Shown: piece by piece, positions 15,541 through 38,540 of the stretch | Numbering within the stretch: the stretch's first letter is position 1 | Layout: each line of letters starts with the position of its first letter | NCBI GenBank assembly: GCA_964567265.1 | Contig: CAZMLK010000001.1 | Span: forward strand, 459,723-523,722 | Reading direction: 5' to 3' | Origin: an uncultured Candidatus Saccharibacteria bacterium | GTDB lineage: Bacteria > Patescibacteriota > Minisyncoccia > Phycocordibacterales > UBA12088 | DNA length: 64,000 bases | Program-made: the position numbers and the translations under genes | Notes under the pieces: generated by a model | Database searches by the model: none | Told to the model about the DNA's origin: nothing | The model's input: only the letters and a program-made list of their open reading frames with translations

Positions 15541-15544
15541 AGAA

Positions 15545-15595
15545 CCGGCAGAATGTAAAAACCCGCCCTTGAGGCGGGTTTTTACATTCTGCCGG
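15545..15595. terminator. Perfect 23-bp-arm palindromic bidirectional terminator
   Basis: CCGGCAGAATGTAAAAACCCGCC-CTTGA-GGCGGGTTTTTACATTCTGCCGG. Confidence 0.65.
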
Positions 15596-15610
15596 TTCGG
15601 TTCCGCGTGC

Positions 15611-15949: not shown

Positions 15950-15999
15950 ATGGGTGCGTTAACGCTGATAGTAATTACTGCACGATTCAAAGCATCCTC

Positions 16000-16485: not shown

Positions 16486-16558
16486 CGTTAATTGATCAAA
16501 AGCGATAGAGGAAGCCTATCAGATATCAGACGCAGAGCAAATTGCGGAACCGCCAATA

Positions 16559-16873: not shown

Positions 16874-17020
16874 GTGATGTTTGGGTCAAATGATAAAGCT
16901 ATGCACTCAGTATAAATGTAAACCCGTTCCAGTGAAGCGCTCATGAATAGCCTATTCCTGAATGTCTACAGAAAAGCACCCCTCCGTACTAGACGGAAGG
17001 GTGCGGGCCCGAAGGCGGGC

Positions 17021-17139
17021 TAGGTCAACATGCGGTAGGCGACTCCCGCGATTATGAGGATGACCCCAGCAAGAGCGTGGGAGAAATTCATCGCGCGCTG
17101 CCCGTCGGTATCTCCGAAAAAAACGTAGATCTTCTGCAT
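17021..17139 (-). CDS. Small hydrophobic protein (38 aa) with a strong Shine-Dalgarno sequence
   Basis: AGGAGG lies 8 nt upstream of the ATG. The peptide is MQKIYVFFGDTDGQRAMNFSHALAGVILIIAGVAYRMLT. It is not in the ORF track because it is under 60 aa. Confidence 0.3.
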
Positions 17140-17254
17140 CGCAAAGTCCTCCTGATTCACGAATCACTGACCAACAATACTATACAAGGAAAGACGACGA
17201 TTGTCTACCCTCGTCTTCATTCTATATTTAGATATTTCCTGCGATGATGAGGTC

Positions 17255-18064
17255 ATGGCGGACTGGAGCAAAATCGGCAGCCGGGGATCCGTAGAAGACC
17301 GGCGTGCGTTCGGTCCTGCTTCGATTGGCGGACTTGGCCTTGGCGGCGTGGTGCTCGTGCTCCTTTTCAATTACCTCAGCACCGGCCAGGTGGATATACC
17401 GGAAGCACTGAACCAGATTGAACAGATCCAGGTGCAGGCGGACCAATCCCACAATGCGACCGATTTCGAAGGAGCCGACTCCTATGAGGTATTCGCCTCG
17501 ACGGTCCTCGGTTCCACCAACGACATGTGGCGCAAGGTTTTTGCTGCACGGAATGCGACCTATCAGGAACCCAAGCTGGTACTCTTCCGCGCGGCGACGC
17601 CTTCCGCATGCGGCGGTGCAGACAGCCGCATCGGCCCCCATTACTGCCCAACTGATCAGACAATCTACCTTGATGAAACCTTTTTTGATGAGCTTGCAAA
17701 ACTCGGCGGCACAGGCGACGTCGCCGAGGCATATGTCATCGCCCACGAAGTCGGCCACAACGTACAGAACCAGCTCGGCATCCTGGACGCGGAGCGGACA
17801 AATGCTGATTCAGTGAGAGTCGAGCTGCAAGCCGACTGCTTCGCAGGGCTCTGGGCATATTCGATCAAGGATCTCGGGGTCATCGCGCCCGGAGAAATAA
17901 ACGAGGCCATGGATGCGGCGGCGGCCGTCGGAGACGACCGCATCCAGCAGACTTACGAGGGACGCGTGACGCCAGAAACCTGGACCCATGGCTCCGCAGC
18001 GGAGCGCTTCCAGGCATTCAATAATGGATTTTCTTCCGGCTCCCTTTCGGCATGCATGCAGTGA
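17255..18064 (+). CDS. YpfJ-family putative neutral zinc metallopeptidase, membrane-anchored
   Basis: 'GPHYCPTDQTIYLDETFFDEL' and 'AYVIAHEVGHNVQNQLG' (HExxH) are YpfJ blocks. ATG at MADWSK. Confidence 0.75.
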   Translation: MADWSKIGSRGSVEDRRAFGPASIGGLGLGGVVLVLLFNYLSTGQVDIPEALNQIEQIQVQADQSHNATDFEGADSYEVFASTVLGSTNDMWRKVFAARNATYQEPKLVLFRAATPSACGGADSRIGPHYCPTDQTIYLDETFFDELAKLGGTGDVAEAYVIAHEVGHNVQNQLGILDAERTNADSVRVELQADCFAGLWAYSIKDLGVIAPGEINEAMDAAAAVGDDRIQQTYEGRVTPETWTHGSAAERFQAFNNGFSSGSLSACMQ

Positions 18065-18158
18065 CCTCGCGCGGGGTTCGTATGAAAACAAAAGCCGCTC
18101 CTGGGTGGAGCGGCCTGGCAATGAGGTCTTGTCTCAAACTATGCAAGGCGGCGCCTCA

Positions 18159-18743
18159 TCACAGTTCGGATGGCGGACTCGGAACATACCGCCTCATATC
18201 CCGTGACCACAGTCGTGCGAAGCGGTTATCGTCTTTGGGACGCACTACCGAAAGACGATACCAGCACATCCTGGCATACAGTTGGATGAATGGATCCACT
18301 GCTCCAGTCGGCAGCTCCGCTTCAGCAGTCATTATGAGTTCCGAAGTAGCACGTGCGCCCTCTCGAACAACCGAGGAAACACCAGATGGGAGTACGTGCT
18401 CCTTCAAAAACCGAAATGGCGTGGGGGTGCACCGGAAAATGATCGCGACCTCATTCCGCCAGATATGCACGGTGGGGTCATTCCTATTCTGATCCATCTG
18501 CTCGAGGATCTTGACCACGGTATCTCGTGTTTCGTCTGAATATATGAGGTCGATGAGCGGAAATGTCTCTATCCCGCTTCCCCCGATGCCCACGGTCATC
18601 GTCTGGACCACTGCCCCGTAGAATAGTCTCCCCGGCCCCTTGCCCGGCACGTACATGATTTCCATGGCATCCCACTCCTCATGATGTGATGGTACCGCAC
18701 TGTCTACTTCGGAGAGTAAACAGTGCGTGCGCACATGTGTCAA
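18159..18743 (-). CDS. Hypothetical protein (weak call)
   Basis: Long ORF with no recognisable motif; the true start may be the internal 'MEIMYVPGKG'. Confidence 0.3.
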   Translation of the reverse strand: MTHVRTHCLLSEVDSAVPSHHEEWDAMEIMYVPGKGPGRLFYGAVVQTMTVGIGGSGIETFPLIDLIYSDETRDTVVKILEQMDQNRNDPTVHIWRNEVAIIFRCTPTPFRFLKEHVLPSGVSSVVREGARATSELIMTAEAELPTGAVDPFIQLYARMCWYRLSVVRPKDDNRFARLWSRDMRRYVPSPPSEL

Positions 18744-24780: not shown

Positions 24781-25275
24781 TCAGCCAATGGCTCTCTGGA
24801 GAAGAGCTTTCAGCTCCTGGGCAGCGGGCTGCTTCATCGTCTCCTCCAAGCGAGCGAGCGCTGCGGGGGAACAATAACTGGCGCCACCACCCTGGATTTC
24901 CAGACGAGCACTCACGGTGTGGACTCCTTCAAGGCCCATCGCCGCGAGTTTTTCAGCGAGGATGCTGATGTAGCGGTTGTAGGCGTAGAACTTGTCAGCC
25001 TTGAGGTGATAGGTTGGACGGATTTCAACCGTATAGTTCCTATCAATCCAAGGAGCCGCGTCTTGCATCTTGGCTTCGCTCATCCAGTTGATGCTCGGTG
25101 CGAGGCTTCCGCCTTCCCAGTAGGATACCCACGGGTTAGCTTTGTCTACTTCCTTGATAAGCTCACAAAGATGAGCTCCATCAAGATGTGCTTCATTCAT
25201 CACACTGAAGTTGATGAAAGCTTGTACACCGAAACACTGCTCATTCCACGACTTGTTGTGCTGATTGGCCTCCAT
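24781..25275 (-). CDS. Hypothetical protein
   Basis: ATG at 25275, with an AAGGAGG Shine-Dalgarno sequence and a consensus promoter upstream. No family recognised. Confidence 0.5.
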   Translation of the reverse strand: MEANQHNKSWNEQCFGVQAFINFSVMNEAHLDGAHLCELIKEVDKANPWVSYWEGGSLAPSINWMSEAKMQDAAPWIDRNYTVEIRPTYHLKADKFYAYNRYISILAEKLAAMGLEGVHTVSARLEIQGGGASYCSPAALARLEETMKQPAAQELKALLQRAIG

Positions 25276-25319: not shown

Positions 25320-25348
25320 ATTATATACTAAAATGGTAATATTGTCAA
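25320..25348 (-). promoter_or_regulatory. Consensus sigma70-type promoter (TTGACA-N17-TATAAT) reading leftward into gene 24781-25275
   Basis: Minus-strand TTGACA at 25348-25343, a 17-nt spacer, TATAAT at 25325-25320, and AAGGAGG at 25287-25283. Confidence 0.5.
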
Positions 25349-25510
25349 ATAGGTTCGGGCGTCCGACTACTGTCCAAAAAATAAATAGCTCAAACAAAAA
25401 AGATTTTTACTGGCTCCCACGATGGAACGAGTTCCGAACCATACATTGGGCCGAATTATTCGAATTTCCTGAAGTTTCAATGGTTCAAATACAACAATTA
25501 ACTTCCGATG

Positions 25511-25909
25511 TTAAACAAAGTTAATTAGGAAATTGTACATACCCATACCGCACACTCCTTGTAGTGGTTGACCGATTTTAGGAGTGCCGACATCAATAGT
25601 GTCTTCTCCGGTTTGGGGCAATATTTTCTGATAGCCAAGCGATCTAATTACTAAGGACGCCGAGCAGTCATAAGTACCGTTTGTTTTCACGACGAGCTTC
25701 GTCGGAATGCCACCCTTTGCTGTGGAGCTTTTCGGAGAATAGCCAGCTTTTGCATCGATAGTGATGTATTGCACGCCGTCTCGTATCTCGACATTCTGAG
25801 CTGCTCCCGTCGAAGCTGTCGGAGCGTTGCCCTTCGACCCACCGAGAAAGATAATGCCGAGGCCGACAACGAGGGCGAGCGTGAGGATGATCGAAGCAGT
25901 TTTGTTCAT
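25511..25909 (-). CDS. Secreted small cupredoxin-like / metal-binding protein (tentative)
   Basis: Signal/TM, then 'VVKTNGTYDCSASLVIRSLGYQKIL' and 'GVCGMGMYNF', with Cys/Met/His ligand candidates. It lies in the metal operon. The family call is weak. Confidence 0.4.
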   Translation of the reverse strand: MNKTASIILTLALVVGLGIIFLGGSKGNAPTASTGAAQNVEIRDGVQYITIDAKAGYSPKSSTAKGGIPTKLVVKTNGTYDCSASLVIRSLGYQKILPQTGEDTIDVGTPKIGQPLQGVCGMGMYNFLINFV

Positions 25910-25927
25910 AAGATAATTATATCAAAA

Positions 25928-26941
25928 TTAAATATTAAATAAGGGACGGATGATCCCCAATCCTGCGAGACCAGCAAGGAGTGCAAAGATGCCGAGGCCG
26001 ATCACCACGATCCCTGCTGACTTGAAGAAAAGCGGAGCATGTTTTGAATGTGCAAACGACACCGAACCGAAGGAAAGGAGCGCGAGCATCGGCAGGGTTC
26101 CAAGCGCGAACGAGAGCATGATCAGAAGTCCCGAGATGAATGATCCGCTTGAAAGCGCGGCGACCTGCATCGCTTGCGTGAATCCACAGGGCAGGAAGAA
26201 TGTACCGATACCGATAAGTATTGGAGCGAAAGTCGAGTGCTCAATTTTTCTGAAATAAGCAAAGATGCCGGTTGGCAAAGCCACTTTGCTTTTCTTAATG
26301 ACACCTATGAGATTGAGTCCAAGGAGTATCATCACACTTGATGCGATGAGACCGAGAATCGCCGAAAAGGTAAAGCTGATACCGATTGCCTTGCCGACCA
26401 GCCCCAACACTCCTCCAAGGACTGCAAATCCGAAGAGTCTACCGCCATGAAAAAGCACAAACTGTTTTTTGCTCGTTTTAGTGCTTTCATCTTGTGCGAC
26501 TTTCGCAGAAAGGGAGAGAATTAAGCCACCTACAATCGCCAGACAGCTTGAGACAGACGCAATGAGACCGATGATAAAGCTCGTTGTCGGTGTTGTCGTT
26601 CCACCAATTCCGAGGTTTAAAATGCCTGATTTTTGTAATATGAAAAACAGGATTAAGAACGCGAGACCAATGGGTATCGCTTTCCAAATAATATCGTCAG
26701 ACTTCTTTTCTTGAATAATCTTCTCGACTGAAAGGGTGTAGCCGTTTGGTTTTATTTTGGCTGTGAGAAGTTGCGCAATCTCCTCGAGGTTTTGATTACT
26801 ATCGGTCTCAATGGTGACCGTTTCTTTTTTCAAGTCAACCTGCGATTTTTGAATGAATGGCTGTTCGTTCAAAACATCTTCAATAAGGATTTTGCATGAT
26901 GCACAGTGAGTGCCAGAAACATGGAATGTAAGTGTTTTCAT
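25928..26941 (-). CDS. Heavy-metal-associated (HMA) domain fused to a CcdA/DsbD-like thiol-disulfide transporter membrane domain
   Basis: N-terminal 'GTHCASCK' (MxCxxC-type HMA motif). The TM domain has 'VSSCLAIVGG' and 'FFLPCGFTQAM', the two CcdA cysteines. Confidence 0.7.
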   Translation of the reverse strand: MKTLTFHVSGTHCASCKILIEDVLNEQPFIQKSQVDLKKETVTIETDSNQNLEEIAQLLTAKIKPNGYTLSVEKIIQEKKSDDIIWKAIPIGLAFLILFFILQKSGILNLGIGGTTTPTTSFIIGLIASVSSCLAIVGGLILSLSAKVAQDESTKTSKKQFVLFHGGRLFGFAVLGGVLGLVGKAIGISFTFSAILGLIASSVMILLGLNLIGVIKKSKVALPTGIFAYFRKIEHSTFAPILIGIGTFFLPCGFTQAMQVAALSSGSFISGLLIMLSFALGTLPMLALLSFGSVSFAHSKHAPLFFKSAGIVVIGLGIFALLAGLAGLGIIRPLFNI

Positions 26942-26950
26942 AAGTTTGTT

Positions 26951-27853
26951 TTATATAACTGCATCAGGCTCCAATTTGCAGAAACGGCCTGTCCTATCTT
27001 TTTCGACCTGCAGGGTTGCGTGACCTATATGGAATCGCTCTCGTAATTTCTCTACCGCATCCTGTAAGACAGAGTCATCGACAACCGCCTCTGCTCTTAT
27101 AAGATGTGCGGTTAAACCTGTTTCTTTGGTGCTTATGCTCCAAATATGCAAGTCGTGAACTGCAACAACACCAGCAAGACCCTTGAGATATTTTTCAACA
27201 TCATCCCTATCAACAGATTCGGGAACCGCATCAAGTGATAGATTAAGAGATTCGCGCATGAGAGACCACGTGGTGAAAATGATCACAGCGGCAATGACAA
27301 TACTGATTACGGGATCAATCCATGCGAATCCTGTTAGCGTAATGAGTAAACCTGCAATGACTACTCCAAAAGAAACACCTGCATCAGCAGCCATGTGAAC
27401 AAATGCACCTCGAATATTGATGTCATTCTTTCGGCCTCTAAGAAACAGCAATGCGGTTACTCCATTGATAACGATACCAACGACCGCTACCCACATGACA
27501 GTACTACCCATAACATTCGCAGGAGCATTAAATCTATGCAAAGCTTCTACAAAAATTCCTCCAGCCGCTACAAAAATAAGAATTGCATTGAAAAGCGACG
27601 TGAGAATAGAACCTCGCCCAAATCCATACGTATGTTTTTTACTTGGTGTCCGAGTAGCAAACCAAATTCCCGCCCATGAAATGAGAAGTCCGAAAACATC
27701 AGTTGCGTTATGGATCGCGTCTGAAGTAAGAGCAAGCGAATGAGAGGCATACCCAAACCACAATTCGGTAATAACAAACAATATATTCAGAGCAAGCCCG
27801 ATAATAAAGGCCAGATTATAATTTTGAGTTTTATGAGAATGATCGTGCGCCAT
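26951..27853 (-). CDS. Cation diffusion facilitator (CzcD/ZitB-like) metal efflux transporter
   Basis: 'HSLALTSDAIHNATD' and 'HMAADAGVSFGV' are CDF signature helices, followed by a C-terminal cytoplasmic domain. Confidence 0.8.
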   Translation of the reverse strand: MAHDHSHKTQNYNLAFIIGLALNILFVITELWFGYASHSLALTSDAIHNATDVFGLLISWAGIWFATRTPSKKHTYGFGRGSILTSLFNAILIFVAAGGIFVEALHRFNAPANVMGSTVMWVAVVGIVINGVTALLFLRGRKNDINIRGAFVHMAADAGVSFGVVIAGLLITLTGFAWIDPVISIVIAAVIIFTTWSLMRESLNLSLDAVPESVDRDDVEKYLKGLAGVVAVHDLHIWSISTKETGLTAHLIRAEAVVDDSVLQDAVEKLRERFHIGHATLQVEKDRTGRFCKLEPDAVI

Positions 27854-27857
27854 AATA

Positions 27858-30167
27858 TTAGAGCTTTGTATTTTTAAGACGCAGCGAATTGGTTACGACC
27901 GTTACACTCTCGAATGCCATAATCGCTCCGGCAATAGCAGGACTTAGAGTCCAGCCAAAAAATGGAAAGAGAATACCGGCTGCGACAGGAATACCGACAG
28001 AGTTGTAGCCGAAAGACCAGATAAGATTTTGCCATATTGTTCGATTGGTCTTTTTTGCAAGATTCACGGCTTCGGCGACTTTGCCGATATCGCCTTTGAG
28101 AAGCACAATATCAGAGCTTTCAATTGCTATATCCGATCCGTCGCTCATTGAGATCGCAACATCTGCTTGTGTAAGAGCTGGCGAATCGTTCACTCCATCG
28201 CCAATCATTGCAACCTTGAAACCCTTCTTTTGAAGATCAGATACGATGTTTAACTTATCCTCTGGCTTCACATCGGCAAATACCTCGTCGATACCAAGCT
28301 CCCGCCCTACCGCATCAGCGGTTTTCCTGTGGTCGCCTGTAGCCATAATAACTTTGAGACCGAGAGATTTGAGTTTAGCGATTTCTGTTTTTGCTTCCGC
28401 CTTGATAGTGTCGTGAATTTTTACGAGCGAGAGCACTTCTTTGTCGTTTGCAAGATAGAGTTCGCGTCCGCTTTCAAATCGACCGTCGTGGAAATCTTTT
28501 CTAATCTGTTCCTCCGACTGCTTGATTACACCGCTCACATAAGCGATCGAGCCGAGGTAGTAGGACATATCTTGGTAGGAGGAAGTAAGGCCCTTTCCCG
28601 GTACTTCTTCAATATCAGAAATGTCAACACTTTTCGCTTTTGCGTCCTTGAGCCAATTTGCAATGCTTGCTGATATAGGATGCTTCGATGATTTCGTCAT
28701 CGAGTAGATGAGCGACTGCTTAAAGCTGGTATCCTCGATATCACAGACATGATTCTCGTCCTTACAAAATATTCCCTCGATGGACAGCTTGTTTTCTGTA
28801 AGCGTACCAGTCTTATCGAATACAATCGCACTTACCTTTGAAAGCTTCTCAAGACTCTCTGCGTTCTTGATGAGAATGCCACGACGCGCACCAGTACCGA
28901 CGCCGGTAATGATTGCAGTCGGAGTTGCGAGACCAAGCGAGCAGGGACAAGCAATCACCAAGACCGCCATAGTGGTAGAGATTGCTAGGGCGAACGCTTT
29001 TGTCATTCCAAATGTTCCCGGCGCAAATATCATCCATGAAGCAAATGTAATGACTGCAAGCACGAGCACAATGTATACGAAATAACCAGAAATCTTGTCG
29101 GCAATCTTTTCTATAGGTGCCTTTGAATTCTGGGCATTATCGACAATGCTAATGATGTGCGCGAGAGCGGTATTCTTAACATCTTTTTCAACCTGCACTT
29201 TCAATAGCCCCTGAAAATTCTGGGTCCCTGCAAATACCACGGCTCCTGATAACTTATCCACAGGCACTGACTCTCCGGTAAGATTAGACTCGTCAACGCT
29301 CGACGAGCCATAGATGACCTTACCGTCAACAGGGATCTGCTCGTTTGGCTTCACAATAACCACGTCGCCAACCTCAACTTTCTCAATAGGTATTTCGATC
29401 TCTTTTCCGTCTCGTTCGATCACAGCAAACTTACTGGTAAGTTGTGCGAGCTTTTGGAGAGCCTCGTTTGTCTTTTTCTTTGCTCGCGCTTCGAGGAACT
29501 GACCGAGGGCAATGAGACCTATCACTATAATAACGACATCATAAAAATTTGAACTAACATCCAGATATTTTGAAAGCGGTGCCTCGAAAGCTGTTACTGC
29601 AAGAGAGTATATAAATGCGACGATAGTCGAGATTCCAACAAGCACATCCATGTTGGCGATACCAGTACGCAAGAAAATCCAGGTAGCTTTGATATATCGC
29701 CGACCGATTCCAAAAAGCACAAAGCTCGCAAAGATCGGCATCAGATGATGGAAGAATTCGTAGATCGTTTCAGGCATTTTCGGGATGATGCCGTTATTGG
29801 ACAGAACATCCCAGAACATCATTACGAAAGAGAAAATAACCATTGGTATGACGAATTTCATTTCGAGGGCCATGTTCCTCACTCCGCTTCCCCTAGAGTG
29901 ATCCATGCGAGCATGATCCTCCGCAGACATATTCATTTCAGCAGCAGTTGTGGCTGTATCTTCAAACTCATAACCGAGGGGGGAAATCACGCTATTGAGA
30001 TTTTCTAACGGAAGCGGTGACGCAGAGAAAACCACCTTTGCTTTTTCATTACCCAAGCCAACCGATACCGACTCAACCCCCGGCACTTTGGCTATTTTGT
30101 TTTGAATAAGAGAGACACAGCTCGCACAGTGCATCCCTTTTACCTTGTATGTGTTTGCTGTAGTCAT
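27858..30167 (-). CDS. copA: Copper-translocating P1B-type ATPase
   Basis: N-terminal HMA 'GMHCASC'; 'CPC' in TM6 ('IACPCSLGLATP'); 'DKTGTLT'; 'GDGVNDSPAL'. Confidence 0.9.
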   Translation of the reverse strand: MTTANTYKVKGMHCASCVSLIQNKIAKVPGVESVSVGLGNEKAKVVFSASPLPLENLNSVISPLGYEFEDTATTAAEMNMSAEDHARMDHSRGSGVRNMALEMKFVIPMVIFSFVMMFWDVLSNNGIIPKMPETIYEFFHHLMPIFASFVLFGIGRRYIKATWIFLRTGIANMDVLVGISTIVAFIYSLAVTAFEAPLSKYLDVSSNFYDVVIIVIGLIALGQFLEARAKKKTNEALQKLAQLTSKFAVIERDGKEIEIPIEKVEVGDVVIVKPNEQIPVDGKVIYGSSSVDESNLTGESVPVDKLSGAVVFAGTQNFQGLLKVQVEKDVKNTALAHIISIVDNAQNSKAPIEKIADKISGYFVYIVLVLAVITFASWMIFAPGTFGMTKAFALAISTTMAVLVIACPCSLGLATPTAIITGVGTGARRGILIKNAESLEKLSKVSAIVFDKTGTLTENKLSIEGIFCKDENHVCDIEDTSFKQSLIYSMTKSSKHPISASIANWLKDAKAKSVDISDIEEVPGKGLTSSYQDMSYYLGSIAYVSGVIKQSEEQIRKDFHDGRFESGRELYLANDKEVLSLVKIHDTIKAEAKTEIAKLKSLGLKVIMATGDHRKTADAVGRELGIDEVFADVKPEDKLNIVSDLQKKGFKVAMIGDGVNDSPALTQADVAISMSDGSDIAIESSDIVLLKGDIGKVAEAVNLAKKTNRTIWQNLIWSFGYNSVGIPVAAGILFPFFGWTLSPAIAGAIMAFESVTVVTNSLRLKNTKL

Positions 30168-30172
30168 ATAGG

Positions 30173-30448
30173 TTATTTTCGCTTAAGTTTATAAACCTTA
30201 AGCACTTCATCTTTTGCCTTATTCGACTGACCCGTGGACATTTGATGATGAACGCAATGATCAAGGTGATTTTCTAATAAAATATCCTCCACATTTGAAA
30301 GTCCTTGTTTGACTGCCGATGTTTGAGTGATCACATTGATGCAGTACGTATCGCTCTCAACCATTTTTTGTAGTCCGCGCACCTGACCTTCAATCAGCTT
30401 GAGTCGGCGAATGACTTTCGCCTTACTTTTTTCGTCCATGTATTTCAT
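30173..30448 (-). CDS. csoR: CsoR/RcnR-family metal-sensing transcriptional repressor
   Basis: 'RRLKLIEGQVRGLQKMVESDTYCINVITQTSAVKQGL' and 'HLDHCV' give the Cys/His/Cys Cu(I) ligand pattern. Confidence 0.8.
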   Translation of the reverse strand: MKYMDEKSKAKVIRRLKLIEGQVRGLQKMVESDTYCINVITQTSAVKQGLSNVEDILLENHLDHCVHHQMSTGQSNKAKDEVLKVYKLKRK

Positions 30449-30457
30449 ATAACAATA

Positions 30458-30475
30458 ATACCCCCTAGGGGGTAT
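30458..30475. promoter_or_regulatory. Perfect 18-bp GC-rich palindrome ATACCCCCTAGGGGGTAT, 10 bp upstream of the csoR start; candidate CsoR operator
   Basis: It resembles known CsoR operators (TACCC..GGGTA-type dyads) and sits at the head of the csoR-copA operon. Confidence 0.5.
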
Positions 30476-30524
30476 ATGTCAAATGAAAATAGTAAAGTCT
30501 GAAGTGGAAGAGTATGATTAGCTC

Positions 30525-33326
30525 ATGGCTAAGTACAGTCGCGCTAAAAGAATCGAAAAACAGGAAGTGGGAATACTGGAGACTCTCCTGAACGCCCATC
30601 CTCTGCTCACGCAACTCACTAAAGGAGACGATGATTTCCCGCTTATCGATGGATACGTCCATTTACTCAAAGAGCAAGACGAGGTGGATGGGAATATGCT
30701 CAAAGTGCAGGTAAAACCCCTCAAGATCAACAAGGATGGCACACTCTCCGCGACATGTAGCACCGACCTTTTGAGTCACGCGCACGGCTCCTCTATACCC
30801 GTCCTTTTGGTCGCGGTGAATCCGGACGAGCAGATCGCGTACTGGATGTATCTCGCGCCTGAGGCCGTGAAGACCCAGTACGAAGCGCAGATCGCGGCCG
30901 GTAAGAAGACGATCACCTTTCGACTGAATAAAAGTAATGTCATCAAAAAAGGTACCGATAAATATATCGCGGAGTGGAAGCGCATTTGCGGTCATCATCG
31001 GAACACTTCGAACGATCGCCTTGCCGGTAGATACAAAAAACGCATCAAGAAAAATCTCATAACAGCGAATGAGGACACTTTACTCGAACGGATTCGGACT
31101 CTACACGACCTCGTATACTACCGAACGAATAAAGGCGAGTTCCCACTAGTGGAGATCGTGCTCGAGATGGCGCGTACGATCGGTGGCACTTCTGCGTCCG
31201 TGAAGATCGCGTATATCGAGTTGCTTGAGCAACTCATTCACGACAAGACGTCCGAAGCTCTGGAGGTAATCACAAAACTCGCGTCCGATGAGAGCGAGCA
31301 AGTTCGAAGGAAAGCAGCGGAAACATTGAAGAACGCCGCGAAATACAACTACCATTGGCTCAATGCTATCGGTTACGGTCCGTACCGCACCATGCTCAAC
31401 TTTCTCGAGAGCCATGATGTTCCGTCAGAGATCGCGCACGAGATGTTCCGTAACCTCCTTACCCCCGATTTCGACGGCACTTCGCAGACAGACATGTACA
31501 CGCTTACTTTTCACCGCGGTGCGCTGGACGCAACAAAGTTCCTCAAAGATCTTCGTCATGATGCAATAAATCTCCTAACTAAGCGATATGAGACGACAGA
31601 TACGATTCGCGAGAAAAGTAAAATCGTGGATACGCTTGGCTATGCAACCCACAAGACCGACTGGCCGACCGGTGATCCCGACTTCATCCAAAGGTCTGTA
31701 GATATGGTCGAGGCCGACACTCAGCTTGTTGTTGCAGCATATAAAAAGATCCTTTTCCCAAAAGGCAAAATGATCTCTGACTATCCGGTAATCTACGAGA
31801 TCGAGACACAGGTATCGATCTTGAACACGAGAGAGCGCAAGATCGCAGGCGTTGACGAGCTGCTTCAACAGATCCGCGAGGACAAGGGCGACTATCGATT
31901 GTTTAGCTTACTCGCCGGAGACGAGATGCGTTTGCGCCGCGACGTTGAGTGGCAAGAGGGGCGAAAGCAAAAAGAAGAGGAGATCAAGGAGATCCTCGAT
32001 TCGATCACGGAAGAAAATGCTGACGACTGGTACAAGCGCATAGACACCATCGCCAACTTTCGAGAGTGTATCGAAGACTGGCTCTATCAGACACTACGAG
32101 ACTTTCTCGCACAAATCGCAGAAAAGAAACCGGCAGTAGCTGCCATATTTGCAAAGCTCGCGCTCAAAAATAAGACAGGCCTGTATTTCTTTTTTCGTGG
32201 CATACTCTGGGGTCTTCGGAAAGGTTCACTCGAGCAGTGGGATGACCATGTTGAATACATTGCGAAGCATCGCCTCACAGATCAAATAGACGGGATCCTC
32301 ATGTCGTATTTCTCGATAGGAGGAACCGAACTATCCGCCGCCAAACTTCGCAAAGAAGATATAGCGCTTACCATTGAGATTGCGAAGAAAGAGGGGCGCT
32401 TTGCTTTCCTAAAGGGTTCAGAGATGAACCGCGCGCTCGAGTATCATTCGATCCGATCGCTCACATTTCTCTCAACGTTGGATAAAGCCGTTCGAAAAGC
32501 GCTGATCGAAAAAATAAAAGAGTACCCCGAACTAGACACCATGTACTCTAACGAACTCGGTTTTGCCCTGCATTGCAAATGGATCAAGTTGGATGAATGG
32601 GATCGACCAGATCTCGAAGCGCTTGCGGAGATGCTCGTAAACATAAAACGTCTCGATCACTACGAGATGCAAGTTCTTCACGAGCTGGGTATCTTTGACT
32701 TTGATCTAATGATGTCTGTGTTTGAGCGCCGTATAAAACATCCCTACGATAGTGGCTACGACGCAATCCCGTATCACATAGAGGCCGGTGTCGCGGCATT
32801 CATACGCGACGATCCTCGCACCAAAGACGTTGTCCGACGCTGGCTCGAAGAACGCAATCCCGATCAAGACGGGATGATCGGCTATCACTTAGGCGAGTTT
32901 GTGAATCGCATAGGAGGCACGGTGCTACGCGAAGCTCTCTCGGAGTTGATCGCTACTGGCAAGAAAGAAAACATCCTCAAGGTAATGGAAATGTTGCCTA
33001 TTTCTGATCCGGCAGACCCCTCCCTGTGTCTTGAGATCGTGGCCGCAACGGATGACAAGCAAATCTTGGCTAGAGTCGACGCACGGATGCGACAGACCAG
33101 TGGTGGCACCGGCTCCGTCGGCGAAAATATCTTCGCGCGGGAGATGCGCAAAAACCAAGCTCGTATCGAGGAAATAAAGTCGAGAGCGACGAATCCCAAG
33201 ATCGTAAAGTTCTGTGAGAAAGTACTTGCCAACCTTACACAGGACATCGCGAGATCCGATCGCGAGCATGAGCGAGAAATGCGGGAAGAACGAAAAGAAT
33301 ACGACGAGGAACACGACCTCGAATAA
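30525..33326 (+). CDS. Large (933 aa) protein: N-terminal DUF4365-like PD-(D/E)xK nuclease-fold domain, then a long HEAT/ARM-like alpha-helical region
   Basis: The N-terminus 'DDFPLIDGYVHLLKEQDEVDGNMLKVQVKP' fits the DUF4365 'D.ID.....(Q/E)VK' pattern. Later 'SEQVRRKAAETLKNAAKYN' and repeated helical hairpins follow. No P-loop. Confidence 0.65.
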   Translation: MAKYSRAKRIEKQEVGILETLLNAHPLLTQLTKGDDDFPLIDGYVHLLKEQDEVDGNMLKVQVKPLKINKDGTLSATCSTDLLSHAHGSSIPVLLVAVNPDEQIAYWMYLAPEAVKTQYEAQIAAGKKTITFRLNKSNVIKKGTDKYIAEWKRICGHHRNTSNDRLAGRYKKRIKKNLITANEDTLLERIRTLHDLVYYRTNKGEFPLVEIVLEMARTIGGTSASVKIAYIELLEQLIHDKTSEALEVITKLASDESEQVRRKAAETLKNAAKYNYHWLNAIGYGPYRTMLNFLESHDVPSEIAHEMFRNLLTPDFDGTSQTDMYTLTFHRGALDATKFLKDLRHDAINLLTKRYETTDTIREKSKIVDTLGYATHKTDWPTGDPDFIQRSVDMVEADTQLVVAAYKKILFPKGKMISDYPVIYEIETQVSILNTRERKIAGVDELLQQIREDKGDYRLFSLLAGDEMRLRRDVEWQEGRKQKEEEIKEILDSITEENADDWYKRIDTIANFRECIEDWLYQTLRDFLAQIAEKKPAVAAIFAKLALKNKTGLYFFFRGILWGLRKGSLEQWDDHVEYIAKHRLTDQIDGILMSYFSIGGTELSAAKLRKEDIALTIEIAKKEGRFAFLKGSEMNRALEYHSIRSLTFLSTLDKAVRKALIEKIKEYPELDTMYSNELGFALHCKWIKLDEWDRPDLEALAEMLVNIKRLDHYEMQVLHELGIFDFDLMMSVFERRIKHPYDSGYDAIPYHIEAGVAAFIRDDPRTKDVVRRWLEERNPDQDGMIGYHLGEFVNRIGGTVLREALSELIATGKKENILKVMEMLPISDPADPSLCLEIVAATDDKQILARVDARMRQTSGGTGSVGENIFAREMRKNQARIEEIKSRATNPKIVKFCEKVLANLTQDIARSDREHEREMREERKEYDEEHDLE

Positions 33327-33342
33327 AATAAGTTTCTAGGTA

Positions 33343-34080
33343 GTGCCGTTAAAAATGAAAATGCAAATTAAGCCAATTTACGATGCAAAGTACTATAGAG
33401 TACAGGAGATCTCCGCCCACCCTGGCTTTTTGAATGACGTAAAAAATTTACTTAATTCATTCTCCACTTTTGGATGCCCAGTGCCCAAAAAAGGTTTTAG
33501 AAAATACTCGGAGTTTGATGCCTGGCAAAAGAAGTTATGGAAGAAGTACGATTATTATGTACGTAAAACCGGAGTTCAGGAAGACTTCCCAATAGTCGTA
33601 TATGGCCAAACAATAGATAAAATTCTGATGAGACACGGCCTTGATCCAAAAAATAAAGATGATAAATATTGGATTGAGCAATTCGTTTTCTTTAAGAAAA
33701 AAGAATTCGAAAAACCACTTGCTTTCATCAGGTACATACCGCCAATCGCAAATAAAGATCCTGAACTTTGGATAAGGTATTTTGGACACACCAAACCATC
33801 AGACATCAAGGTAGAAAAAATATTGGAATATCAAAAATTACTCCCGGACTATAGAGGCAAAAATAAACCCAAGGATAAAAAGATACTTAAAAGAAATAAG
33901 ATTGTCGTCGAGTTATATCTTAAAGAGAGAGAAAAAAGTCGTGGAGATATTTATGCACGTGAACGTAGCATCAAGGGGCAATCAATATCCCAATTTGTCG
34001 CTAATAAACTACATAAAAAGTACCCTGAATTAAACAAAGTTTTGGTAGAGCAGATTGTAAAAATGCAGCCTGAAAAATAA
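33343..34080 (+). CDS. Lys-rich hypothetical protein (245 aa), 17 bp downstream of the DUF4365/HEAT gene
   Basis: Very AT-rich ORF with no recognisable motif. A terminator hairpin follows. Confidence 0.5.
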   Translation: MPLKMKMQIKPIYDAKYYRVQEISAHPGFLNDVKNLLNSFSTFGCPVPKKGFRKYSEFDAWQKKLWKKYDYYVRKTGVQEDFPIVVYGQTIDKILMRHGLDPKNKDDKYWIEQFVFFKKKEFEKPLAFIRYIPPIANKDPELWIRYFGHTKPSDIKVEKILEYQKLLPDYRGKNKPKDKKILKRNKIVVELYLKEREKSRGDIYARERSIKGQSISQFVANKLHKKYPELNKVLVEQIVKMQPEK

Positions 34081-34119
34081 ACTCAAGGATAAAAATAAGC
34101 TTAACTGCATCCCATTCCT

Positions 34120-34151
34120 AAAACGACTAGCATAAACATGCTGGTCGTTTT
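34120..34151. terminator. Rho-independent terminator
   Basis: AAAACGACTAGCAT-AAAC-ATGCTGGTCGTTTT (one mismatch). Confidence 0.55.
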
Positions 34152-34155
34152 GATT

Positions 34156-34410
34156 ATGGAAATGAAAATTAAAAAAACAAATAAGACATATCAAACCGCA
34201 GACATGGCATGTGCTGCGGCTCTTTCGCTTTTCTTTCCAATAGAAGCAATAGACCGCACATCGGAGCGAAGGGTTTTCTTCATTTTTGAGAGCACAGAAA
34301 AATTGGATCAATTCGTGCAGATGTTTTGGCGTGGAGAGGTTCAGCTCGAACCAAGGGCATTTTTCGACAGCATAAAGGCGATCAAAACTCGGCTGTACGA
34401 CCAAATTTGA
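34156..34410 (+). CDS. DUF5659-like small protein (phage/CPR-associated family)
   Basis: 'YQTADMACAAALSLFFPIEAIDRTSERRVFFIFESTEKL...FFDSIKAIKTRLY' fits the DUF5659 pattern. Confidence 0.45.
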   Translation: MEMKIKKTNKTYQTADMACAAALSLFFPIEAIDRTSERRVFFIFESTEKLDQFVQMFWRGEVQLEPRAFFDSIKAIKTRLYDQI

Positions 34411-34412
34411 CC

Positions 34413-34628
34413 ATGTTAGCGAAGGAAACCATCGATGAGCTATCTGTGATCCTCCGAGAGGAATTCGGGGCCGATTTAACGGATGTAGAGGCGTATGAGG
34501 TAGGCACTTCTCTGGTGGGCCTTTTTGATCAATTAAGTGAGTTGGATCGGAAGGATAAACAACTAAAGGAGGTGAAGGACGCAAAAAAGAATGAACATGA
34601 AAAAACTGAGCTACATAAAACTATATAG
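34413..34628 (+). CDS. Small hypothetical protein (71 aa)
   Basis: ATG 3 bp after the previous stop; no motif. It overlaps the next ORF by about 38 nt. Confidence 0.3.
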   Translation: MLAKETIDELSVILREEFGADLTDVEAYEVGTSLVGLFDQLSELDRKDKQLKEVKDAKKNEHEKTELHKTI

Positions 34629-35064
34629 ACCGGAACTAGCTCGGCTCACAAAGAGCCTAAGCGAACGAGAAATTACACTTTTCTTAACCCTTGTATCGCA
34701 CGCCGGTTGGGATCCCAGACACAAAGACCATTATTCAAAAATAAATAAAACCCTTCGCGAAATTCAACAGGAATACCTTCCGGAATGGTCATTAGGAAAG
34801 GTGCATGACGTAATAACCGCCTTAAAAGATAAGGGGTTTATCGAAGTAGCTAGTAAAAGAACTTTTCTAATTAATTATCTGTGGCTCTACACTGCAACTC
34901 AAAAAACAATACAGGCAATTCTTTCTAATCCTGAACATTCTGCTCACTTACCTAAACAAATATTTCAGAATTCCGAACAGTCTGTTCGAACCGGTGAACA
35001 GCTAAACTTTCGAAATAAACTCAAAGATCTTGCGGAAAGCAAGCGTTTGCCTCGCGGCCCGTAA
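34591..35064 (+). CDS. Hypothetical protein
   Basis: AT-rich ORF; no motif. Confidence 0.4.
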   Translation: MNMKKLSYIKLYRPELARLTKSLSEREITLFLTLVSHAGWDPRHKDHYSKINKTLREIQQEYLPEWSLGKVHDVITALKDKGFIEVASKRTFLINYLWLYTATQKTIQAILSNPEHSAHLPKQIFQNSEQSVRTGEQLNFRNKLKDLAESKRLPRGP

Positions 35065-35276
35065 TTTCTTGTTCATTTTCTCGAACAAATTGCTCACGTA
35101 AAGAAATTAAAAAAACTAAATAAAAATAAACATGAAAATAAACCAACGACGCGCAAAAAAGATTGTTAAAGCTTTCACGGCATTTCTCGATTCTCAATAC
35201 AGAGAAACCTTGAGTCAAAGCATTAAAAGAGGGATCGCACGAAAGCGATCAGCGACGCTTAGACACAATAAATAAT

Positions 35277-35762
35277 ATGAAAATAGATAAAAATCCCCTC
35301 TACACAATCACTAAAAAGGAAATCCAAGAAATAGCCTCGGAAAGGATCGAACGATACCTAACTGAAGACGAGATTGAAGAGGTTATATACAAAATCAACG
35401 TGGAAGTAGTGAGGGTAATGCCGGAGGCTATCGAGGAAATAAACGAGTTTAGTGAATTGTGCTCTAGAGATATTGGGAAGATTAAAGCAACTCCAAGATA
35501 CGAGATTTACTGGAAAAACGACAACGCCTTCCAAAACACCCTCGTATTTACGTATACGTTTACAGACGAGGAAGATGCTAGAGCATATGTAGATCACGAG
35601 TACTGGGACGCAGGCGCTGAATACAAAATAGAAAAGGTCGATAACGAAAATCGAGAACTGATCGTTCATCACAAAAACCCACTAAACGGAGGGGATGGTT
35701 TCCATATGGACGTCCATAATGAGCCAAAAGACACCCAAAACGCCAAGGCTCTGAATTTCTAA
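35277..35762 (+). CDS. Hypothetical protein
   Basis: AT-rich ORF, acidic; no motif. Confidence 0.4.
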   Translation: MKIDKNPLYTITKKEIQEIASERIERYLTEDEIEEVIYKINVEVVRVMPEAIEEINEFSELCSRDIGKIKATPRYEIYWKNDNAFQNTLVFTYTFTDEEDARAYVDHEYWDAGAEYKIEKVDNENRELIVHHKNPLNGGDGFHMDVHNEPKDTQNAKALNF

Positions 35763-35763
35763 T

Positions 35764-36087
35764 ATGAAGTACTCGCGATATCAACGCTCTCTCCATATCG
35801 AAAAAGTTGCAACGATTCTACGAAGCGATCTGACGTTAAGTGCTAGAGCTGTGTTCAGGATTCTGAACGAGCAAGGACAGCATTTGAGTCGATCGTATGT
35901 GAATCAAGTAGTTGCTTACGCTCTTTCAAGAATCGGGGATGAGGAACGTAGAAAACGAATTGGTGCACAAGAACACGCCGAGTGGATCCAAAAAGTAATG
36001 GTCGTAAGTGAAGAGTTAGAGATCTTAAAGAAGAAACTTGACTCCCTGATTTGGTCTTATCCAGAGGATTTTGAGCCTAGGTATTGA
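35764..36087 (+). CDS. Hypothetical protein (possible small DNA-binding protein)
   Basis: It starts 2 bp after the previous gene; no firm motif. Confidence 0.35.
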   Translation: MKYSRYQRSLHIEKVATILRSDLTLSARAVFRILNEQGQHLSRSYVNQVVAYALSRIGDEERRKRIGAQEHAEWIQKVMVVSEELEILKKKLDSLIWSYPEDFEPRY

Positions 36088-36283
36088 ATTCCAATTATTT
36101 ATGAAAAGCGCTATACTTAATTTGCGACCTACGGTTTTGAATATCTGCACAGGGTATTTGCCTTTTTGTGGCTCCAATTGCGGGCTGAAAGGGGCAGCTA
36201 TCCTCCACAATTGGTTGCCTTGTGCAATTCAAGACTGTGGGTCGCAGGCTCTGGCTGTCCCTTTTTGTATTTCAGCCTGCGAC

Positions 36284-36829
36284 ATGGATAAGTTTAAAAA
36301 AGAACTAAAAAATGCATTTAAACTGCTCTCGATCTTTGTTATCGGGATACCAGTCTTTCTCGCTGCTCTTTATGGTTTCGCATCGCTCATGGCCAATAAT
36401 TCCAATGCTCCGGATGTAAATAAGGGGGTCATATCATTCATCTGTTCAAAACAAGAAGGCGCGAAAAACATTTCTTACTACCTCGTTAATACAGTCAGCG
36501 CAGTAGATCAAACAATTCAATTTTCAAATCCGTTACGCGACGTCGCAGTTCAGATGTCACGCATTTCTAATAAGGGAGGTTGGGATACTCAATCGCTCTG
36601 CACTCCAAATGTTATGGATTTACCGGAGGCGGAGTGGCAGACGCTTTCGATAGGATCAGACTGTGGCGTAGGGGCATCTATTTCCGCATGTGATGCAGAG
36701 ACAATTACAACCTCTAACGGCGTACAGATAATACGGTTGTTTCCTCTTGTGAACGGACTATATTCTGGAACCGCTGGATCTATAAAGAAAGGGGCGCTGA
36801 TCAAAATCACGGGTGTCTCCAAGAACTAA
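36284..36829 (+). CDS. Membrane-anchored hypothetical protein
   Basis: Internal ATG (MDKFKK) followed by a TM helix. Its stop sits 2 bp before the recombinase ATG. Confidence 0.4.
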   Translation: MDKFKKELKNAFKLLSIFVIGIPVFLAALYGFASLMANNSNAPDVNKGVISFICSKQEGAKNISYYLVNTVSAVDQTIQFSNPLRDVAVQMSRISNKGGWDTQSLCTPNVMDLPEAEWQTLSIGSDCGVGASISACDAETITTSNGVQIIRLFPLVNGLYSGTAGSIKKGALIKITGVSKN

Positions 36830-36830
36830 T

Positions 36831-38408
36831 ATGAAAGCAGTACTTTACGCACGAGTATCATCAAAGGATCAAGAGGAGCACGGCTACTCTCTTTCATCGC
36901 AACAAATGTTCCTTAAAGAATATGCGCAAAGAAAAGATCTTGAAGTGAATAGCAAGTGCATTTTTTCCGTATCAGAATCAGCAAGTTCGCGTAAGCAACG
37001 CGGAGTTTTTGCAGAAATGATGGCATACGCAATTAAGCATGACATAAAAGATCTTATCTGTGAGAAAGCCGATCGAATCACTCGTAATTTTAGAGACATG
37101 GTCGCTATCGATGACTGGCTAGAGGAGGATGATCAGAGACGCGTACACCTAGTCAAAGATAGTTTAGTAATGCATAGAAACTCGAGATCACAGGAAAAAT
37201 TAAACTGGGCAATTCGAGTAGTTTTTGCAAAAAATTACACAGACAATCTCTCGGAAGAAGTTAAAAAAGGACTCGCTGAAAAGTTGAGACAAGGATGGCT
37301 TCCAACAAAGCCTCCGGTTGGATACAAAACAATAGGAGAAAAAGGACGCAAGATTCACGTTATAGATGAGGACAAGGCTCCGCTAGTCAGAAAAATGTTT
37401 GAGCTGTATTCAACCGGCAATTACGGCACAGATACACTTGCAGAAATGATGTTCAAAGAAGGTCTCCGAAATGCGGGAGGCAAAAGAATATATAAGTCTC
37501 GCGTCGCAGTGCTTCTAACGGATCCGTTTTACATTGGCAAAATTAGGTACAACGACGCAATCCACAGAGGTGCACACGAGCGTCTAATCGGCGACGAATT
37601 ATTCGAGATAGTCCAAGGAAATCTAAAAGGAAATGGTGCTCCTCGATATCGACGCCACTCTCCGACATTCAAGTCGCTCATAAAGTGTGAGGAATGTGGC
37701 GGGTCGGTGACGTGGGAGATTCAGAAAGGACATTGGTATGGGCATTGCAATCGCTACAGAGAGTGCACTCAAAAGAAGTTTGTTAGACAGGAAAGGATTG
37801 AAGAGCAACTCCTGCCTTACTTGGATGAAATAACAATCAAAAATCCTCGTGTTCTCGAGTGGGTAAAGAAAGCCATGAAGGAAAGCCATGCTGATGAGAT
37901 AGCTTATAGCTCCTCCGCTCGGGATGAACTCAACAAACGATTTGAGTCTGTTCAGCGCCGCCTTGAGGCGCTCTACGACGATAAGCTGGATGGAAAGATT
38001 CCAGAAGACTTCTACCAAAGAAAATTTAAACAGTTCACTGAGGAGAAAGATCAGATCATTTCGGCGCTAAAAAGACACGACGGAGCAAATACGAAATACT
38101 ACGAACTCGGATCTAACGTGCTAGAACTTGCTCAAAGGGCAAAGGAGATCTATCTGAATGAAAATAGAACCGCCGACGAGAAAAGAATTCTCTTACGTTT
38201 AGTTTTTTCGAACCTCGTAATAAATGTAGATAAACTAACGGTTTCCTATAACAAAGCCTTCCAGATCCTTAGTACCTACTCGGGTATGTGGAATAAGAAA
38301 TTCGAACCGGAGGATAATGGCTCTGATAAAAGACAAAAAGGCACTTCCGTGCCTTCTCGTCCTATTTTGCTCCGGCGCCTGGATTCGAACCAGGGACCAA
38401 CGCGTTAA
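36831..38408 (+). CDS. Large serine recombinase (integrase)
   Basis: 'AVLYARVSSKDQ' resolvase-type catalytic Ser motif, a recombinase domain, a zinc ribbon 'CEECGG...C..C', and a coiled-coil C-terminus. The last codons ('LLRRLDSNQGPTR') translate the tRNA 3' end. Confidence 0.85.
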   Translation: MKAVLYARVSSKDQEEHGYSLSSQQMFLKEYAQRKDLEVNSKCIFSVSESASSRKQRGVFAEMMAYAIKHDIKDLICEKADRITRNFRDMVAIDDWLEEDDQRRVHLVKDSLVMHRNSRSQEKLNWAIRVVFAKNYTDNLSEEVKKGLAEKLRQGWLPTKPPVGYKTIGEKGRKIHVIDEDKAPLVRKMFELYSTGNYGTDTLAEMMFKEGLRNAGGKRIYKSRVAVLLTDPFYIGKIRYNDAIHRGAHERLIGDELFEIVQGNLKGNGAPRYRRHSPTFKSLIKCEECGGSVTWEIQKGHWYGHCNRYRECTQKKFVRQERIEEQLLPYLDEITIKNPRVLEWVKKAMKESHADEIAYSSSARDELNKRFESVQRRLEALYDDKLDGKIPEDFYQRKFKQFTEEKDQIISALKRHDGANTKYYELGSNVLELAQRAKEIYLNENRTADEKRILLRLVFSNLVINVDKLTVSYNKAFQILSTYSGMWNKKFEPEDNGSDKRQKGTSVPSRPILLRRLDSNQGPTR

Positions 38409-38442
38409 CAGCGCGCTGCTCTACCGCTGAGCTACACCGGAA
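38371..38442 (-). tRNA. tRNA-Asn (anticodon GTT)
   Basis: Hand-folded cloverleaf on the minus strand. Acceptor TCCGGTG/CGCCGGA; D-arm GCTC-AGCGGTA-GAGC; anticodon stem GCGCG/CGCGT with loop CTGTTAA; T-arm CCTGG-TTCGAAT-CCAGG; discriminator G; CCA not encoded. Confidence 0.8.
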
Positions 38443-38540
38443 TACGGGCATTCTAGCCAATATGCCCCCAGATTGCAATGTGACTTTCCGGGGCCGGACA
38501 AAAGAAAACAGGCTCCCGTAGGAGCCTGTAAGTGTGGCCT

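Follow-up and report, generated by a model that had tools for sequence, protein, structure and literature searches.

A large serine recombinase gene that probably spans its own attachment site in a tRNA-Asn-associated element of a Saccharibacteria genome

The 64,000-nucleotide stretch analysed here (the window; positions 459,723 to 523,722 of contig CAZMLK010000001.1 from an uncultured Candidatus Saccharibacteria bacterium) harbours a low-GC integrative element of 12,956 bp, which occupies positions 25413-38368 and is bordered on its right side by a host tRNA-Asn(GTT) gene. The large serine recombinase (LSR) encoded at the tRNA-proximal edge is very probably the integrase of the element. Judging from the sequence, and with a probability of roughly 0.85, the attachment site of the element (attP) is situated inside the recombinase gene, 35 codons ahead of its stop, so that integration would relocate the 3' end of the gene (referred to below as the tail) to the far end of the element, while the open reading frame (ORF) left behind would enter the tRNA because attP lies within it.

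The left edge is covered by an ORF (25333-25524) ending in ...LPRWNEFRTIHWAELFEFPEVSMVQIQQLTSDVKQS and a stop codon, which is the conserved tail of long-form recombinases. Its detached recombinase portion (25418-25524, plus strand) comprises 35 codons and a stop (PRWNEFRTIHWAELFEFPEVSMVQIQQLTSDVKQS), is recognised by a tail hidden Markov model (HMM) with an E value of 5.5e-18, and is joined in frame to the gene at the other edge: positions 36831-38373 followed by 25418-25524 form a continuous ORF of 549 aa, the 37-residue C-terminal stretch of which (LLPRWNEFRTIHWAELFEFPEVSMVQIQQL...) aligns with long-tailed homologues. In the integrated copy the ORF proceeds for 12 codons past the GCTCC core on the antisense strand of the tRNA, and the true tail is found 13 kb away, at the left end. 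The reconstructed attP junction reads ...CCTATTTTGCTCCCACGATGGAACGAG..., also written CGTCCTATTTTGCTCCCACGATGGAACGAGTTCC. The core is located inside the integrase ORF and the C-termini of the integrated and excised forms differ, as is the case with integrases whose genes span attP. The full-length 549-aa integrase, with its conserved two-helix tail, is accordingly predicted from the reconstruction to be encoded in the excised (attP-type) configuration.

The in-frame reconstruction succeeded in all 13 core-bearing pairs of junctions (the window and 12 related loci). Each time the CTC codon was in frame, the joined ORF of 541-578 aa carried the conserved tail, and the elements measured 6.6-13.0 kb. 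GCTC is present at both junctions in 12 of the 13 other related pairs, the exception being an element at tRNA-Asp (locus L058) with GCGC. An identical two-junction arrangement with the GCTCC core was found in a sibling element, L140 (NCBI GCA_964578505.1), which resides at a tRNA-Asn site in a different gene neighbourhood and encodes a recombinase 87% identical to that of the window.

The recombinase and its tRNA target

The integrated form of the recombinase (36831-38408, plus strand) is a protein of 525 aa with Pfam Resolvase, Recombinase and Zn_ribbon_recom domains and a match to the PHROG integrase family phrog_95 (5.9e-68). Two starts are available, GTG at 36813 and ATG at 36831. The latter is the likely one because homologues begin with MKAV...; in addition, the protein starting at GTG is absent from the contig index as an exact sequence, and on the source Logan contig the gene is annotated with the ATG start. 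The catalytic domain (PF00239, 1.5e-18) contains the YARVSS motif, with R8, V9, S10 and S11 invariant among 25 homologues. It is followed by the Recombinase domain (PF07508, 2.8e-13) and a zinc ribbon with coiled coil (PF13408, 24.8 bits, slightly below the cutoff of 25.3), where C286, C289 and C312 are invariant and C306 is at least 90% conserved in the same set; the protein thus possesses all domains by which an LSR is recognised. An AlphaFold2 (AF2) model of the long-form homologue P0027 (mean predicted local distance difference test score 81) displays long helices at residues 329-451, and its top Foldseek matches, extending over the full length with E values down to 3e-17, are the SPbeta, Bxb1, LI and phiC31 integrases. 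A sequence search of the PDB with the recombinase gave no match at E<=1e-3.

The tRNA-Asn(GTT), which constitutes the B' arm of the host attachment site (attB), was located by ARAGORN at 38369-38441 on the minus strand and by Rfam RF00005 at 38370-38441 (69.5 bits). An earlier note on this DNA, made from the letters alone, had folded this tRNA by hand, had assigned to it the final 12 codons of a 531-aa LSR and had regarded the arrangement as typical of elements restoring the tRNA 3' end. The tRNA is confirmed by both programs and the class of the enzyme by its domains; the length is corrected to 525 aa, and the overlap amounts to the last 13 codons and the stop (38369-38408), which lie antisense to the tRNA 3' half over 40 nt. 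The proposed restoration is contradicted, since an element of that kind must leave a displaced tRNA fragment at its far end, and none was detected elsewhere in the window by repeat finding, by patterns with three mismatches or by local alignment. The only sequence common to both junctions is the GCTCC core, at 25413-25417 in attL and at 38369-38373 in attR, where it corresponds to tRNA positions 74-70. Because the junctions share only GCTC(C), the last 12-13 codons of the recombinase are host DNA outside the element, those past 38373 being antisense to the host tRNA.

The position of the shared bases indicates that the crossover dinucleotide is within GCTC and that the core corresponds to tRNA positions 70/71-74, from which it follows that the mature tRNA would consist entirely of host DNA. 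The tRNA body is intact after insertion, and the element contains no tRNA copy; even at a permissive threshold, the tRNA was the sole Rfam match inside the island. The reconstructed attB reads ...GATTTTTACTG-GCTCC-GGCGCCTGGATTCGAACC..., with the tRNA ending in ...GGAG-CCA, as against ...GGAG-CAA once the element is inserted; its junction is ...TTTTTACTGGCTCCGGCGCC..., also written GATTTTTACTGGCTCCGGCGCCTGGATTC. A terminator-like hairpin (38508-38529, minus strand) and a promoter-like site (38450-38478, minus strand; a consensus match only) are located directly upstream of the tRNA, which suggests that the latter forms its own transcription unit between a host terminator and a hairpin supplied by the element.

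In characterised LSRs, the distance of the zinc-ribbon-domain motif from the centre is 5 bp shorter in the half-sites of attB than in those of attP (PMC3783163). The same shift is observed here in the right half-sites only. The P' arm of attP (25418-25445, plus strand) contains a mimic of the tRNA T-loop (TTCCGAACC, 25432-25440), and GAAC lies at a distance of 23 nt from the core start in this arm, as against 18 nt in the tRNA arm. Across the 14 pairs of attL and attR, GAAC is found at +18 in all B' arms (T-loop TTCGAAC(C)) and at +23 in eight P' arms (mimic TT(T/C)CGAAC), the P' arms without an exact mimic having degenerate versions at the same position. The T-loop TTCGAACC is likely, on the strength of this spacing, to be the zinc-ribbon-domain motif of the B' half-site, and with the crossover at CT or TC of GCTC the motif positions agree with those reported for LI integrase. 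As in other LSRs, the attachment sites are short and share few base pairs: the core measures 4-6 bp in 13 of the 14 pairs, the exception being the element at tRNA-Asp with 11 bp.

Opposite the P' arm, the P arm of attP (38326-38368, minus strand) lies inside the recombinase coding sequence and forms, on the tRNA strand, a hairpin (GGCAC-GGAA-GTGCC, 38340-38353) followed by a T-run (TTTTTGTCTTTT, 38339-38328), with an RNAfold energy of -22.6 kcal/mol and a z of -5.9. Among 31 loci the stem sequence varies and pairing is kept, with compensatory double changes in nine of nine pairs; 81% of the hairpin cells are paired as against 60% in shuffled alignments (0/500), and the covariation score is 0.66 compared with 0.28 for shuffles and 0.14-0.35 for slid controls. 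About 49 cells are G.U pairs on the tRNA strand and A.C mismatches on the opposite one, which points to the tRNA-sense RNA as the constrained strand. The stretch encodes a basic linker, disordered in the AF2 model. The hairpin was not flagged by a consensus terminator scan; it may nevertheless serve as a replacement terminator or trailer for the tRNA, thereby shielding the integrase gene from tRNA read-through.

The compositional data agree with these boundaries. The island has a GC content of 44.2% and the remaining window 56.1%; in 3-kb windows the values are 0.405-0.479 inside and 0.531-0.602 outside, the ranges being disjoint, and the L1 distance from the host in tetranucleotide composition never falls below 0.363 inside the island and never exceeds 0.243 outside it. 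Both profiles break at the island, so that the low-GC block described in the earlier note is real, as is its view of a foreign, mosaic island at tRNA-Asn with an LSR at one edge (GC of 0.446 in the tail and metal module, 0.494 in a DUF4365 gene, 0.400 in the small genes and 0.427 in the recombinase). The extent given there, 25350-38442, embraces the island and needs trimming on both sides: it begins 63 bp too far to the left and takes in the host tRNA on the right. The 63 bp (25350-25412) are the B arm, host DNA that formed the 3' trailer of the tRNA prior to insertion and that doubles as upstream region for the host gene at 24781-25275 (minus strand). In a 2.7-kb contig of a sister strain (L138) the left host flank recurs with 99% identity, which ends directly after GGCTCC, and the B arm of the window is unrelated to that of L140. 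The idea of nested or serial acquisition stood in part. Nesting is not apparent, because the window holds one recombinase and one detached tail only; an exchange of cassettes is seen in the two swapped blocks of L140 described below.

Proposed cycle and competing explanations

In the mechanism proposed, the element would be inserted at the extreme 3' end of tRNA-Asn(GTT) by its own LSR. Recombination at the GCTC core (tRNA positions 71-74) would cut the integrase gene, so that its last 35 codons come to lie at the left end; the element may cycle between a circle with full-length integrase and an integrated copy with a tail-less one. The tail would be a functional part of the enzyme, its loss upon insertion altering the activity or directionality of the integrase in a manner comparable to the IntP-to-IntX change of phage Mx8, and the hairpin of the element would provide the new tRNA terminator or trailer. 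Since the tRNA half-site is retained in attR together with a P arm of terminator-like character, attR might be reused as a target, which would give rise to tandem arrays.

Several results weigh against this account. Patterns for the attP and attB junctions had no match (0 each) in Joint Genome Institute (JGI) metagenomes. An empty attB was not found either: for each right-flank host gene looked up, the three contigs on which it occurs all contain the island, and the left-flank gene led, among the matches listed, only to the sister strain, with a rearranged, occupied site. The long-tail contigs L135-137, L142 and L145 lack terminal overlaps and none is demonstrably circular. The long-tail genes of L003, L007 and L143 are embedded in long chromosomal contigs, where neither a tRNA nor a detached tail occurs within 10 kb. 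Furthermore, the left half-sites (B and P) of the 14 pairs display no clear common motif. The failure to find either an empty site or a circle would suit a fixed relic, that is, an element which entered as proposed, lost the ability to excise and now carries an inactive, tail-less recombinase, and so would the related element with an extra rearrangement at the same site of the sister strain. However, the recombinase ORF, the detached tail (stop-free and with its conserved residues) and both arms are intact, the tail has been under purifying selection relative to L140, and this sibling inhabits a different host context, all of which renders a relic unlikely. Hardly tenable is the classic type of tRNA island, where attP would hold a copy of the tRNA 3' end, the tail codons would belong to the island and the displaced tRNA fragment would be found at the other end. 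The 40-nt overlap between the recombinase ORF and the tRNA 3' half is indeed the usual signature of tyrosine-integrase islands (PMC4383910), but the tRNA 3' half remains unmatched in the window, the junctions share 5 bp only, and the left end encodes the conserved tail of the family in frame. A prophage or phage satellite, as opposed to a plasmid-like cargo element, is also very improbable: LSRs are typical phage integrases and the recombinase matches phrog_95, yet the 13-kb element has no capsid, tail, terminase or lysis genes (Pfam, PHROGs), and its relatives carry restriction-modification (R-M) and other defence-type cargo as well as Rep-like genes. A phage origin was rejected, the 2.9 million contigs of IMG/VR containing a single close match.

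A further alternative is that the tail has no function as protein, the ORF overlapping attP because the element is compact and the apparent conservation of the tail arising from constraint on the P' arm as DNA. In its favour, the P' half-site and its T-loop mimic fall on the first ~9 codons of the tail, a third of the homologues stop at the core with no obvious harm, and in the AF2 model of P0027, where the tail appears as two helices after a disordered linker, the tail confidence is just 58-81. On the other hand, the conserved residues (W, P, Q, LL) reach ~90 bp from the core, well past an LSR half-site of ~25 bp, the frame is open in 13 of 13 reconstructions, and the distal 20 tail codons of the window and L140 differ by a pN (nonsynonymous difference) of 0.165 and a pS (synonymous difference) of 0.52, giving a pN/pS of ~0.3; this is the informative pair, family-wide tail values being saturated (pS ~0.8). 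A tail without protein function is therefore possible but doubtful, and the sequence comparison supports selection at the protein level, which, acting on detached copies, would imply recurrent passage through the joined state. A regulatory role of the tail is plausible by analogy, because C-terminal fusions can reverse the directionality of LSRs experimentally (PMC5737554). A bolder and quite tentative extension of the proposed cycle is that the tail swap acts as a self-contained directionality switch, each DNA state encoding the isoform suited to leaving that state. The full-length integrase of the circle would then be integration-proficient or locked against excision, and the tail-less form would have altered directionality, e.g. 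excision independent of a recombination directionality factor (RDF). If that were true, the family would also offer hundreds of LSRs with a universal attB, the T-arm and acceptor of tRNA.

Related loci and known integration systems

At least 572 matches to the recombinase were obtained from GTDB species representatives. Locus counts refer to the best 80 of these, mostly from Patescibacteria (candidate phyla radiation, CPR) with a few archaeal or other labels, and proteins were compared in a set of 120 homologues. The recombinase 3' end is at a tRNA in 62 of the 80 loci. In 49 it overlaps a minus-strand tRNA (35 Asn, nine Gln, one each of Arg, Asp, Val and Leu, and one odd call), in 12 it adjoins a group I intron, i.e. 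an intron-containing tRNA, and one more tRNA was detected by Rfam only. The remaining 18 loci include five long-tail forms, six contig ends and seven that are unresolved. The introns (RF00028, 55-100 bits) are found just 3' of the recombinase in L006, L009, L010, L013, L031 and L040, and likewise in the target tRNAs of L049, L061, L065, L067, L074 and L076; it is because of this interruption that the 12 tRNAs are missed by ARAGORN. The recombinase tails at the intron loci enter the antisense strand of the intron (...GYTYS..QKAWTIS).

As to the C-termini, approximately 50 of the 120 homologues end in T-arm antisense peptides such as ...LLRGQDSNLEPTP or ...LLRRLDSNQGPSP, approximately 33 stop at the core, right after ...LLRG/RR, and 19 possess the longer tail ...LLPGWDEFRT(I/L)xW....PE....Q...LL. 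With the tail HMM, detached tail segments were identified on the same strand, 5-9 kb upstream of tRNA-adjoining recombinases. A word-index search with the tail only had no match, and phmmer against 1.84 billion representatives returned seven short, uninformative ORFs. A second tail class, ...(V/Y)xD(V/I)RT(Y/F)F....(F/Y)(I/L)P..., which differs from the WDEFRT type, occurs in P0007, P0065, the L046 tail and L138.

Tandem arrays were observed in L028 (3414-4994 and 10001-11602), L046 (170-1819 and 7066-8691), L070 (339-1973 and 10001-11482) and L051 (2210-3142). The tRNA-distal recombinase of such an array keeps its long tail because the left end of the next element adjoins it, which accounts for the chromosomal long tails of L028, L046 and L070, though not demonstrably for those of L003, L007 and L143. 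Long-tail recombinases are present in L003 (433-kb contig), L007 (147-kb archaeal contig) and L143/L144 (27.9 kb). These loci may represent arrays longer than the flank fetched or a subclade with another target; L003 and L143 make up a 563-aa Bacteroidota-like subclade, and in L143 a Gabija-like OLD/UvrD pair is located immediately downstream of the recombinase. The LOOT RNA motif (RF03000, 68-79 bits) was detected on the strand opposite the recombinase in L008 (7640-7750), L009 (8226-8336), L031 (6896-7006), L063 (1872-1997) and L078 (4795-4913). It lies within 5.2 kb upstream of the recombinase in four of the loci, probably inside the element, and 8 kb upstream in L063. The element of the window contains no LOOT motif, even at a permissive threshold.

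Phage Mx8 reportedly integrates beside a tRNA gene. It resembles the present system in that its attP falls within the integrase gene, in the 3' portion, and the C-terminus of the enzyme is replaced upon integration (Tojo et al. 1996, J Bacteriol 178:4004, as cited in PMC4383910). However, Mx8 IntP is a tyrosine recombinase of different chemistry and with arm-type sites, whereas here an LSR with a 4-5 bp core exchanges only a tail of ~35 aa outside the known domains. The genes of SSV1-type archaeal integrases also span attP and are partitioned by integration into tRNA genes, but these enzymes are tyrosine recombinases as well, neither of the two parts of the split SSV gene is functional, and a segment identical to the tRNA is present in the element (PMC8371274, PMC4383910). 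Islander-type islands share the site-specific insertion into a tRNA gene, the tRNA-proximal integrase gene and the cargo or defence genes (PMC4383910); they differ in having tyrosine integrases and a duplicated tDNA fragment, neither of which is present in the element of the window. A Pfam scan of 18 predicted proteins from the island and its flanks gave no match to Phage_integrase, and the sole recombinase detected belongs to the serine family.

The enzyme is similar to the integrases of phiC31, Bxb1, A118/LI and SPbeta (SprA) in domain architecture, fold, short attachment sites, tiny core and the 5-bp motif shift. To our knowledge, these target protein-coding or intergenic sites, have attP outside the integrase ORF and employ a separate RDF. 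A serine-family recombinase is likewise encoded by the filamentous phage phiRSM (Askora et al. 2011), but it is of the small, resolvase-like type and not an LSR. This phage reportedly integrates at a tRNA gene, and its recombinase gene is not known to span attP.

Serine integrases have been described as not known to target tRNA genes (Islander 2015, PMC4383910; TIGER 2020, PMC7192596), and a large LSR survey of isolate genomes makes no mention of tRNA. That generalisation is contradicted by the family described here, large and mostly from Patescibacteria, which does target them. Integrase genes spanning attP are documented for Mx8 and SSV, both with tyrosine recombinases (PMC4383910). A literature search (CPR with serine recombinase and tRNA; attP within an LSR gene), incomplete in coverage, yielded no prior description of an LSR with a gene spanning attP, which would be a serine-recombinase counterpart of the Mx8/SSV arrangement. 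LSR directionality is an active question, and the present case offers a natural system in which recombination itself would rewrite the C-terminus of the enzyme. Moreover, the attachment sites can be read from genomes by their core, tRNA B' arm and T-loop-mimic P' arm, which provides many candidate LSR/attachment-site pairs for engineering. The CPR mobilome is poorly known, and small elements loaded with R-M, TIR, KAP, PIN and metal-resistance cargo may be a main route by which genes for defence and resistance spread among these bacteria.

Cargo genes and sibling elements

Next to the detached tail, a copper/metal efflux module recognised by Pfam occupies 25511-30448 on the minus strand, with genes for a cupredoxin-like protein (25511-25909), an HMA-DsbD_2 protein (25928-26941), a CDF transporter (26951-27853), a P1B-type ATPase (27858-30167) and a CsoR-type repressor (30173-30448). 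It is followed on the plus strand by a variable slot (30525-33326) encoding a 933-aa protein with nuclease-like DUF4365 (Pfam, 3.5e-9) and HEAT regions. A weak PADLOC match of this protein to Aga_REase (3.6e-8) makes its gene a candidate defence gene. The rest of the cargo is a core module of small plus-strand genes (33343-36829), which is collinear in L140 and begins with a 245-aa ORF. Next come DUF5659 (Pfam; 34138-34410), present upstream of the recombinase in 29 of the 80 loci, a 71-aa ORF (34413-34628; 10 of the 80 loci), a 157-aa ORF weakly similar to DnaD/replication initiators (34591-35064; PHROG 3e-4), and ORFs of 161 aa (35277-35762), 107 aa (35764-36087) and 242 aa (36101-36829). 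DUF5659 and the other small ORFs are candidates for the RDF. Pfam revealed no relaxase, coupling protein or type IV secretion system genes in the element, and neither Pfam nor PHROGs revealed genes for virion structure, packaging or lysis; a small plasmid-like integrative cargo element is the best description. Its host genome belongs to the Patescibacteria and is Paceibacteria/Parcubacteria-like.

In the sibling L140 the att core is the same and the P arm almost identical, the B arm being unrelated; the sibling also shares the small-gene core and the metal module except for the CDF gene. It carries ThsB_TIR/8xMP (5306-6198) in place of the DUF4365-HEAT gene and DUF305/DUF4142 in place of the CDF transporter. 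Since the genes differ in exactly these two blocks, the data point to cassette exchange, and the slot between the CsoR gene and the core module looks like a hotspot for the exchange of defence genes within the element. Other members of the family carry R-M systems and genes for KAP NTPase, PIN, Schlafen, kinase and protease proteins, and the long-tail forms on contigs of ~10 kb carry HTH_36/Phage_rep_O and XRE/ImmA genes, one of them (L135) with a DUF87/TrwB-like ATPase. In the Harrisonbacteria locus L002, the closest GTDB relative, a homologous ATPase/HMA-DsbD_2/cupredoxin module (14714-18427) is located outside the element, across the tRNA, which suggests that the metal module moves independently of the element. 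The sister-strain contig L138 (1-920) contains the host B arm and GGCTCC followed by a tail of a different class (VVDDVRTYF...) and a 94-aa ORF, and beyond these a second copy of ~100 bp of B-arm/promoter-like sequence with GGCTCC, an L140-type tail and the end of a cupredoxin gene.

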